Of a stretch of 64,000 bases of DNA, positions 36,018-40,238 are shown piece by piece (the first letter of the stretch is position 1; each line of letters begins with the position of its first letter). The translations under genes and the position numbers were made by a program. The notes beneath the pieces were generated by a model, which made no database searches, was not told the origin of the DNA, and saw nothing but the letters and a program-made list of their open reading frames with translations. The stretch comes from Escherichia coli (GTDB taxonomy: Bacteria > Pseudomonadota > Gammaproteobacteria > Enterobacterales > Enterobacteriaceae): the NCBI RefSeq assembly GCF_965641715.1, contig NZ_OZ282453.1. The stretch is one strand, 5' to 3'.

Positions 36018-36260
36018 ATCAATATCCCTGACATTACTGGTCGCAAGATAAGTATATATCACTTTACAAAAATGCAAGCCGTGAGCCCCGAATTCACAAC
36101 CACCAGCGCGTTTAACACCCTGTGCCGTTTTTCAGGCATAAAAAAACCCGCATAAAGCGGGCTCTTTCAGGTGTCCATGTCTGCTATTCGCCTCGCGATA
36201 CAGCTTTGCGAAGCGTACCAGAATTGAAGCAGTTTATTGGTAAAAATGCAATAACTTTTT

Positions 36261-37923: not shown

Positions 37924-38172
37924 AGCAGAATCCTTCTGGATAAATAACTTTCCCCTGTTTGGGGTCCATCCCTCTTCTCCCTGCGCGCTAACTAAGTAAT
38001 ATGATTCTATTTACCCCTAACGGCCCCTCAAGAACCACAACCAACGGAGTACACAAAAAGCTAATCAACTACGCTACGCAATAAAAAACCCGCCGAAGCG
38101 GGTTAAGTGCGGGTGCGTTGAGGATGCCTGACACATCAGAGGTGGCGAGGGATTTCTCCCCCGCCAGGTCTC

Positions 38173-38328
38173 TTACTCCTCAGGTTCGTAAGCTGTGAAG
38201 ACAGCGACCTCCGTCTGGCCGGTTCGGATTCGTACCTCGCAGAGGTCTTTCCTCGTTACCAGTGCCGTCACAATGACGGTTAAACAGATGACGATCAGGG
38301 CGATTAACATCGCCTTTTGCTGCTTCAT
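38173..38328 (-). CDS. hok: Hok-family type I toxin
   Basis: 51 aa MKQQKAMLIALIVICLTVIVTALVTRKDLCEVRIRTGQTEVAVFTAYEPEE matches the Hok/Gef family (HokD-like); RBS GGAGG upstream. Confidence 0.92.
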   Translation of the reverse strand: MKQQKAMLIALIVICLTVIVTALVTRKDLCEVRIRTGQTEVAVFTAYEPEE

Positions 38329-38385
38329 AGACTGCTCCTCCTTGCCTTTCGGCACGTAAGAGGCTAACCTATGTGTGTAGAGCAT
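38173..38385 (-). CDS. mok: Mok (overlapping reading frame that couples hok translation)
   Basis: 70 aa ORF MLYTHRLASYVPKGKEEQSMKQQ... extending upstream in the hok frame, as in hok/mok/sok loci. Confidence 0.6.
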   Translation of the reverse strand: MLYTHRLASYVPKGKEEQSMKQQKAMLIALIVICLTVIVTALVTRKDLCEVRIRTGQTEVAVFTAYEPEE

Positions 38386-38400
38386 AGATATGGCCTCAGA
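38330..38400 (+). ncRNA. sok: Predicted Sok-like antisense RNA region (boundaries not determined)
   Basis: Inferred from the hok/mok architecture only; not mapped by sequence. Confidence 0.3.
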
Positions 38401-38699
38401 TTAATGTTAAGCGTCTTGCAGGACGCGTAATGTTAACTGGGGCTTTTCTCTGTCTGCCTTACAGTGGCATGCCCGAGGCAGACAGCCTCAAGCACCCGCA
38501 GCTATTCTACTTAACTATCCTTTTCCCGCAAATCGTTTTATCCTCAACGCAAATTTCACCAATCCCCCCCCAACTCGTGTCCCTTACCCTCAGGCTGTTT
38601 CCCTCTTTACACAGAAGATAATTAATGTATTGTTTTTTACAAACAATCAGTTAAGAGCTATCTGTGGGTGGAGTCGCCTTGCGGTAGCTTTTCCTTTTA

Positions 38700-38754: not shown

Positions 38755-39687
38755 ATGCACAGCGTTAACTTCTATTCATTCCGTGTGTTAACCCACAAGG
38801 GCAGCCGAACCAGCAAAAGACTAAACAACCTAGGTTTAGGCGATAAAAAAACAGCATATGAATTATTTGTTGAGTATTTTAATAACTATAAAAACACACC
38901 TATTGAATTTGGTCTCTCGAAAACAAAGGTTTCTCTTGAACAACACACATCACTCACCTTTGATGCTCAAAACCAAGTAATATATGGATATGTAAAGGTT
39001 GGAAAATATGGTGAGAGCAGTGAAATAAAAGACGATAAACTTACTAAAATACGTTATACAACAACTATCAACGATGTAACTCTCAAACAGCGTTACATTT
39101 TAATATTTTTGCCTGACAATTTAGAAGAAGGGATTATAGCATTTCACGCTAATGACAATATTTCTGCTCGCAGCACACTCTCTGATGCATTACTAGACCA
39201 CTTGAAGACAAAATATAAACTTGAAGCGAGAATCAATCCCCTTTGCCACAAAAAAATCCCCCAACACATCCTTGATTCAGAATTAAAACAAATAAAAGCC
39301 CAAGGTTACAAAGCACCAAAGGACATCACGGATGCATTCGGAAATAACAAAACAAACATCAAAACTGATTTGGTAATAAAATCAAATCAAGGCGTATTTG
39401 GTAGTTTTAAAGACTTAAAAGACAAAAAACTAGGAAATATAATAGAAATAATTGAAGATAAGTGTGACGCAATAAAAGTTAGTTTACAATTAGGCAATAG
39501 AACAGTCATTTTTAATTACGACACCATCTTAAGAAAAGGAATTTCTGCCGAATTAGATGATAACGACTTAAACATAAACGCATCTACAGGAATCCCCGAT
39601 CTTAAAGCACTTCATGACACTGTTAAAATCATTGCGAATGATATACTAAGTGAGTTACATAGTGGTAATGGGGGAGTAAAAATATGA
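38755..39687 (+). CDS. Hypothetical 310 aa soluble protein, first gene of an AT-rich two-gene cassette (candidate phage-defence or exclusion component)
   Basis: ORF MHSVNFYSFRVLTHKGSRTSKRLNNLGLGDKK...; Lys/Asn/Ile-rich; no TM helices; no motif I can assign; stop overlaps the start of the next gene (ATGA). Confidence 0.6.
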   Translation: MHSVNFYSFRVLTHKGSRTSKRLNNLGLGDKKTAYELFVEYFNNYKNTPIEFGLSKTKVSLEQHTSLTFDAQNQVIYGYVKVGKYGESSEIKDDKLTKIRYTTTINDVTLKQRYILIFLPDNLEEGIIAFHANDNISARSTLSDALLDHLKTKYKLEARINPLCHKKIPQHILDSELKQIKAQGYKAPKDITDAFGNNKTNIKTDLVIKSNQGVFGSFKDLKDKKLGNIIEIIEDKCDAIKVSLQLGNRTVIFNYDTILRKGISAELDDNDLNINASTGIPDLKALHDTVKIIANDILSELHSGNGGVKI

Positions 39688-40238
39688 ACAAGATTAACGT
39701 AATGAGTGTAATAAAAAAACATTACACAACAATGTCGGATCAACGCGGAAATATTTTACTCGAAGACATCGCAATACACTTCATCATTCCTCTTACATTA
39801 TCATTAATCATATGTTTTACCTATGGGATAATGAAAACCTCTATCGCATCTGTTTTTGTTAACTTTGGAGCAATTACTACCGCGCTGTTAATGAGCGCGG
39901 TTATTATGATCTACGATCAAAAACAAAAAACTGCATTTAAAATTTCAGACATTGAGGAAAACAACAAACCACGTTCAAATCTAATAATTTTAAATAATAA
40001 TAAAACCGTATATGAGCAATTATGTCACAATGTTTCTTATGCCATATTAACATCTGTAGCGTTAGTTATTTTTTCGGTTGCGATATATTTTCTCCCAGAA
40101 ACCCCAAGTGAATTAAAAAAATGGTATTTCGCAACCCCTGCTTACATAATCAGTTATTTAGCATACTCATCCTTCTTTTTTACCGTAGTAACATTCTTGA
40201 TGGTTATAAAAAGATTTAGCACAATATTAGATAGTTAA
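39684..40238 (+). CDS. Hypothetical 184 aa integral membrane protein (four predicted TM helices), second gene of the cassette
   Basis: Hydrophobic segments IAIHFIIPLTLSLIICFTYGI, IASVFVNFGAITTALLMSAVIMIY, VSYAILTSVALVIFSVAIYFL, YIISYLAYSSFFFTVVTFLMVI; translationally coupled to the upstream gene. Confidence 0.6.
   Translation: MNKINVMSVIKKHYTTMSDQRGNILLEDIAIHFIIPLTLSLIICFTYGIMKTSIASVFVNFGAITTALLMSAVIMIYDQKQKTAFKISDIEENNKPRSNLIILNNNKTVYEQLCHNVSYAILTSVALVIFSVAIYFLPETPSELKKWYFATPAYIISYLAYSSFFFTVVTFLMVIKRFSTILDS

Follow-up and report, generated by a model that had tools for sequence, protein, structure and literature searches.

The published hok switch comprises three RNA states: a metastable 5' structure in the nascent transcript, an inert full-length mRNA in which tac pairs with fbi, and a processed, translatable mRNA in which tac pairs with ucb (PMC9841398). 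The loop of the metastable hairpin has a published consensus, CUNUNUG (PMC1524914). Further hallmarks of hok/sok systems are translation switched on by slow processing of the mRNA 3' end, decay through RNase III once Sok has bound, and post-segregational killing. The hok mRNA of R1 carries a terminal stem, which served here as the model for a protective 3' stem-loop (PMC9841398). In the R1 mutant G64T, processed mRNA was still made and almost no Hok, by a mechanism reported as unknown, and the same paper cites the aapA/IsoA system as analogous to hok (PMC9841398). Prophages are enriched for Hok (bioRxiv 10.1101/2025.08.07.668861). As far as one paper's summary of earlier work extends, the chromosomal hok loci tested so far gave no post-segregational killing, so the activity of the copy described below is putative.

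Here, a hok locus was analyzed on the minus strand of a 64,000-nt stretch of Escherichia coli DNA (contig NZ_OZ282453.1), hereafter the window. It is a hok/mok/sok type I toxin-antitoxin module of the hokD type, with the full leader present. An inverted repeat had been noticed in this leader. We read it as a conserved hairpin, nt 13-48 of the hokD-type hok mRNA in the nin region of a lambdoid prophage, forming the stable upper stem of the 5' switch domain, and we give this reading a probability of roughly 0.88.

The toxin ORF (38173..38328, minus strand) encodes a 51-aa HokD-type protein, which matched the Pfam family HOK_GEF (PF01848) with 82.9 bits, against a cut-off of 22. Homologous E. coli records annotate the toxin as hokD. 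A mok-like ORF of 70 aa (38173..38385, minus strand) lies in frame with hok and shares its stop codon, an arrangement that matches the annotated mokC/hokC of K-12. The mok Shine-Dalgarno sequence, GAGG (nt 101-104; 38394..38397, minus strand), is found 8 nt upstream of the mok AUG. Judged from its sequence, the locus has the layout by which hok would be translated through an overlapping mok frame with a Shine-Dalgarno sequence of its own. The putative hok promoter (38504..38531, minus strand), read from the DNA sequence and absent from the calls of a consensus promoter scan, has a -10 box TAGAAT (38509-38504), a weak -35 box TTGCGG (38531-38526) and a 16-nt spacer. The probable +1 lies near 38497, 7 nt past TAGAAT. 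This position was derived from homology to R1 and Rfam plus the -10 spacing; the 3' end of the processed mRNA is likewise a presumed one. At the other end, a terminator scan called an intrinsic terminator of the hok mRNA (38087..38104, minus strand). The neighboring genes encode proteins of the DUF1364, DUF1367 and DUF1133 families, and we read the surroundings as a nin-type region of a lambdoid prophage.

On the plus strand, CTGTCTGCCT (38450-38459) and AGGCAGACAG (38476-38485) are the arms of an inverted repeat of 10 bp without mismatches, separated by a 16-nt loop. The original prediction had described a 9-bp stem with an 18-nt loop at 38447-38488. The element is real, with a perfect stem that covaries across hok leaders; the shorter stem is the same element minus its innermost T-A pair, and the earlier coordinates carried 3 nt of padding on each side. 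In the hok sense, the hairpin occupies 38450..38485 of the minus strand (hok mRNA nt 13-48), as assigned from its sequence, the Rfam helix, covariation and folding. Its 5' arm is CUGUCUGCCU (38485-38476), its loop spans 16 nt (38475-38460) and its 3' arm is AGGCAGACAG (38459-38450), all on the minus strand, and it represents the upper part of the "tac stem-loop" of the hok mRNA. The repeat does lie upstream of mok, as first described. It lies, however, within the transcript, past the probable transcription start of hok, and not in an untranscribed spacer.

Perfect 10-bp inverted repeats whose loops measure 3-30 nt are only modestly rare. The window gave 11 raw hits, at about six separate sites, where dinucleotide shuffles gave 2.3 ± 1.8, and the size class is expected once or twice per window, so that counts from the window alone leave room for chance. 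A chance origin was ruled out by compensatory changes at other hok loci and by the fold of the hairpin (z -3.9). In isolation and in the hok sense, the hairpin had a dG of -19.0, and none of 200 shuffles folded equally well.

The hairpin is surrounded by the other elements of a hok leader. The 5' end of the mRNA is tac (nt 1-12, GGGUGCUUGAGG; 38486..38497, minus strand), which alternates between three partners: fbi, ucb or the metastable hairpin. The latter (nt 3-13 with nt 19-29; 38469..38495, minus strand) folded with a dG of -20.7 and a z of -4.8. The anti-Shine-Dalgarno element ucb (AAGCCCC, nt 53-59; 38439..38445, minus strand) was located by folding and Rfam. In the closed form its predicted partner is the mok Shine-Dalgarno sequence, and in the open form it would pair with tac nt 1-8 instead. 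Near the 3' end, the stem-loop GGCGGGGGAGAAAUCCCUCGCC (nt 333-354; 38144..38165, minus strand) is presumed, by analogy with the R1 terminal stem, to be the protective end of the processed mRNA. The fbi element (CCUCAACGCACCC, nt 375-387; 38111..38123, minus strand) is complementary to tac nt 1-12. The tac/fbi duplex has 12 bp and one bulge, with a dG of -21.5 and a P of 0.995 in the MFE fold, and two long-range repeats of 9 and 13 nt (I14, I10) represent this same end-pairing. The inverted repeat had been suggested to belong to the hok 5' fold-back structure. It does lie inside the Rfam hok-leader model, but the fold-back pairing itself is that of tac with fbi (nt 1-12 with 38111-38123).

The hok 3' UTR (38083-38164, minus strand) gave a sub-threshold match to Rfam isrK (30.5 bits, gathering threshold 50, E 8e-4), which is an Hfq-binding sRNA. 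A weaker isrK-like or Trp-leader-like match was seen at 36138-36226 (minus strand). These matches may reflect a shared stem-loop-plus-terminator architecture alone.

The Rfam model RF01794 matched 38497-38323 on the minus strand over its full length (model positions 1-157), with 113 bits against a gathering threshold of 59 and an E of 5e-26. In its first consensus helix, the 5' end GGGUGCUU pairs with AAGCCCC, and the hairpin is stacked on top. The model is named "sok" yet describes the hok-mRNA sense, because it ends at the hok AUG; automated annotation would therefore put "sok" on the wrong strand. The region labeled in this way (38323-38497, minus strand) is also two to three times longer than the real Sok. 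The Sok antisense RNA was placed at 38377..38453 on the plus strand by end-to-end alignment with the annotated K-12 sokC. Its putative promoter (38342..38370, plus strand; -35 TTGCCT at 38342-38347, 17-nt spacer, -10 TAACCT at 38365-38370) agrees in position with the aligned sokC 5' end. The predicted Sok gene thus placed lies opposite the mok start region and reads as a promoter-like motif, then a hairpin and a U-run. Mapped to these positions, the Sok 3' tail (...GGGGCUUUUCUCUGU, placed by homology) stops about 4 nt into the inverted repeat. The Sok terminator stem-loop (38405-38436, plus strand) is 18 nt longer than that of K-12 sokC and folds into a long, almost perfect hairpin (TTAATGTTAAGCGTC...GACGCGTAATGTTAA). 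The P1-like plasmid hokD locus (L090) has this 18-nt expansion too.

Conservation was assessed over 80 phage or prophage loci whose HokD is identical, over plasmid loci (F-flm type, Klebsiella type, three E. albertii types and P1-like hokD) and over the K-12 loci hokB, hokC and hokE. Rfam aligned the hairpin in every intact leader that it matched. The alignment comprised 27 distinct 5' domains from at least seven lineages. In these leaders, 95.2% of the cells of the hairpin helix were paired, a count that overstates the number of independent events, as mostly close relatives were compared. Both sides had changed at five of the ten hairpin pairs; pair 15-72, for example, was AU (15), UA (7), GC (3) or GU (1). 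The covariation score was reached by none of 500 shuffles, and slid registers were only 33-59% paired. The tenth pair was not conserved, so the core of the family has 9 bp. Within the HokD prophage lineage, two compensated haplotypes occurred, CUG...CAG (that of the window) and CUA...UAG, plus wobble variants. Nine G·U wobbles were valid in the hok sense only, against one A·C, so the structure belongs to the minus-strand RNA. Loop length ranged from 16 to 44 nt across the family.

The neighboring helices were conserved as well. The tac/ucb helix (helix 1) was 95% paired across the leader alignment and the metastable hairpin 91%. The metastable loop of the window, CUGUCUG, fits the family consensus CUNUNUG, and the variable arm positions 15 and 17 of the stable hairpin are its N positions. 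In the metastable fold these two positions have no partner, and the 3' arm of the stable hairpin is their only constraint. Variants with C20 changed to U kept pairing in both folds. Complementarity between tac and fbi was found in all intact loci tested, with coordinated differences between the hokD and F lineages.

Some hok copies had lost the leader. The divergent plasmid loci L082, L086, L087 and L088 had none: an IS or integrase gene truncates three of them, and the fourth is a relBE-hok fusion. The fusion, L088, is an Enterobacter plasmid locus with relBE directly upstream of an R1-like hok, and L082, L086 and L087 adjoin an annotated transposase or integrase gene. Four viral loci (L046, L057, L061, L076) had a K-12-type relE-hokD fusion. 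In L008 and L052, as in L082, L086 and L087, the 5' leader was swapped for unrelated sequence. All of these copies were without hairpin, tac, ucb and sok. A further locus, L048 (IMGVR_UViG_2671180296_000013), kept the 5' end and the metastable hairpin (GGGTGCTTGAGGCTATCTGCCTCG) upstream of its hok ATG at 1001. Beyond these its leader diverges, and three parts are missing: the AAGCCCC ucb, the 3' arm of the hairpin and the Sok terminator of the usual type. Either the leader was rearranged naturally, in a way expected to lock the switch or to alter it, or it is a mosaic formed with a different hok leader.

Folding of the hok leader, the check suggested along with the original prediction, gave the hairpin with a P of ~0.98 in the full-length fold. 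At its full length of 414 nt, the RNA folded at -175.4 kcal/mol (z -7.5), with nt 1-12 paired to CCUCAACGCACCC (38123-38111) and the hairpin stacked directly on that helix. Transcripts of up to 55 nt formed the metastable hairpin (nt 3-13 / 19-29, P 0.97-0.99). Those of 60-100 nt and of 340-350 nt formed the stable hairpin together with tac/ucb (P 0.92-0.99), and those of 385 nt and longer formed it (P 0.98) together with tac/fbi (P 0.995). The isolated tac stem-loop had a dG of -30.3 and a z of -3.7. The metastable hairpin excludes the stable one, because both need nt 13-22. In silico, folding reproduces the published three-state hok model. The equilibrium fold of the processed form depended strongly on the chosen 3' end, with a P for the window hairpin of 0.95 at 350 nt vs 0.15 at 356 nt (assumed 3' end), and so gives no firm open or closed call. 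For the F-type processed mRNA, tac/ucb reached a P of at most 0.15 (ViennaRNA), so its open state is not robust from thermodynamics alone. The unpaired probability of the mok Shine-Dalgarno sequence was ~0.25 in every construct; its accessibility is useless as a switch read-out because it pairs with either ucb or dcb.

The R1 literature and the thermodynamics together suggest an order of steps for the window copy; transcript ends, order of events and functional consequence are modeled on R1 and should be read as probable. In the nascent transcript, nt 3-29 would fold first, as a fast local metastable hairpin. This fold would hide tac, and its loop and 3' arm would consist of nucleotides of the 5' arm of the stable hairpin. 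Once nt 39-48 and later sequence exist, the stabler 10-bp hairpin would capture nt 13-22 and free nt 1-12. In the full-length mRNA, nt 1-12 would pair with the 3' fbi, stacked under the hairpin. With tac taken by fbi, ucb would stay on the mok Shine-Dalgarno sequence, and the model mRNA would therefore be inert. Trimming at the 3' end would remove fbi, and nt 1-8 could then pair with ucb (nt 53-59) instead, at the base of the hairpin. The hairpin would act as a platform beneath which tac is paired with fbi (locked) or with ucb (open), and would also place tac next to ucb, although 45 nt separate the two in the sequence. The tac/ucb pairing would open the mok/hok translation start and the Sok target.

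The R1 mutant G64T bears on the role of the stem. In R1 numbering, the hairpin is C12-C20 / G56-G64, and G64 is part of the closing pair C12-G64; the numbering was checked on the F-type locus at G4/C5/T6, A70-C72 and GAGG 105-108. In silico, the F-type processed RNA formed the hairpin with a P of 0.6-0.99, but with G64U the metastable hairpin took its place (0.55-0.98); the double change C12A+G64U restored the hairpin. The flip agrees with the loss of function described for G64T. The fold of the full-length RNA was barely changed by G64U.

These results weigh on the alternative that the hairpin is a passive remnant or spacer, kept because it shares nucleotides with the metastable hairpin and with the tail of the Sok terminator, and without a switch role of its own; we regard this as improbable. 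Such overlap exists: the 5' arm doubles as metastable loop and 3' arm, and the last 4 nt of the hairpin 3' arm overlap the Sok tail. Moreover, in the part of the R1 mutational scan considered here, few hits were assigned to this stem (PMC9841398). However, nt 39-44 of the 3' arm overlap no other element and yet covary with the 5' arm where the metastable loop leaves it unpaired. The G64T change at the closing pair abolishes Hok production with processed mRNA still present (PMC9841398), and the in silico flip caused by G64U was reversed by a compensatory change.

Very improbable is a function on the opposite strand. The repeat had been proposed to insulate the neighboring cassette, and a plus-strand terminator or insulator might stop read-through from sok or elsewhere into that cassette (38755-40238). 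The plus-strand repeat does fold (dG -18.0, z -3.8), and it is placed between the Sok 3' tail, which it immediately follows, and the plus-strand cassette further downstream. A rho-independent terminator is a G+C-rich stem with a U-tract directly behind it; what comes after the stem on the plus strand is CCTCAAGCACCC / CCUCAAGCACCC, which is no U-tract, and a terminator scan of that strand did not call it. Sok already owns a long hairpin and a U-run ending at ~38453. The leader stayed with hok beside 24 unrelated upstream flanks, and was also found at plasmid and K-12 chromosomal loci without the cassette. Nine wobbles would become A·C mismatches on the plus strand. The insulator was rejected on the missing U-tract and terminator call, the flank turnover and the strand of the wobbles. 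Hardly credible is a DNA palindrome bound by a dimeric regulator of the hok promoter: the repeat is perfect and lies near the putative promoter (+13 to +48), but complementarity and not arm sequence is conserved (both sides changed at five pairs) and the loop varies from 16 to 44 nt, which together are typical of RNA structure and unlike an operator. In addition, only one sense accommodates the G·U wobbles, and the module is without a regulator gene.

The cassette itself (38755-40238, plus strand) consists of two genes next to the hok promoter, with a GC content of 0.30-0.35 vs ~0.49 in the flanks. Its ORFs encode 310 aa and, overlapping, 184 aa, the latter hydrophobic by eye, and neither matched Pfam or PADLOC. 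It was found beside hok in only one (L041) of the 80 viral loci, ~73 of which were compared for flanks, and, with ~95% identity, in a group of E. coli chromosomes. We regard it as candidate cargo of the prophage or as a candidate defense module. Homology among the hokD prophages breaks at ~38500-38620, just upstream of the hok promoter, with 24 upstream-flank groups among 73 loci (from L001-L080); the position of the breaks makes this side of hok look like a recombination junction or cargo hotspot. The hairpin travels with hok, and not with the low-GC cassette.

The reading as a stable hairpin of the hok leader is supported directly by the sequence, by conservation with covariation, by the strand assignment and by the thermodynamics of the three states. 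The hairpin is the already known conserved 5' stem of the hok mRNA, and as such known biology. It matters mainly for annotation, as the repeat beside the cargo cassette is part of hok/mok/sok and not a cassette regulator. The only new angle is an explanation of G64T, together with natural haplotypes that vary stem stability. Competition between the hairpin and the metastable 5' hairpin is a testable explanation for the R1 mutant and a modest mechanistic lead. We tentatively suggest, as an idea that could well prove wrong, that hairpin stability tunes the exit of processed hok mRNA from the metastable closed state. G64T would break C12-G64 and let the metastable hairpin win, and natural haplotypes (G-C, A-U, U-A and wobbles) might set different activation thresholds across prophages and plasmids.

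Among known systems, Helicobacter pylori aapA/IsoA resembles the window locus in its successive metastable hairpins, its 5'-3' lock and its activating 3' processing; sequence and toxin family are unrelated, and the likeness is an analogy only. The hok/sok of R1 and the flm of F are closer. They have the hairpin at the same position relative to the 5' end, and share with the window tac (GGNGCUUGAGG in R1/F), ucb (AGCCCC), the CUNUNUG metastable hairpin and the fbi end-pairing. The stems differ, with CUGUCUGCCU/AGGCAGACAG in the window vs CUUUCUGCC/GGCAGAAAG in R1/F, as do the loops, with 16 nt vs ~35-44 nt containing an internal helix. The mok frame of the window is in frame with hok, whereas the leader ORF and hok of the Klebsiella plasmid locus overlap and have different stops. 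In R1, mok is also out of frame with hok.

The closest annotated relative of the window leader is hokC (gef)/mokC/sokC of K-12. Its 5' domain is alike (CUGUCUGUC/GGCAGAUAG, with two wobbles), mok is in frame and Sok ends at the same position. In K-12, IS186 lies just downstream of hokC, so the 3' fbi context is disrupted, whereas the 3' UTR of the window is intact, with fbi and terminator. The hokD (relF) of the K-12 Qin prophage shares 98% DNA identity with the window over the toxin and 3' UTR half (K-12-derived strains). It lies directly behind relBE, without leader, hairpin, mok or sok. Unlike this K-12 hokD, the window holds a complete ancestral-type locus.
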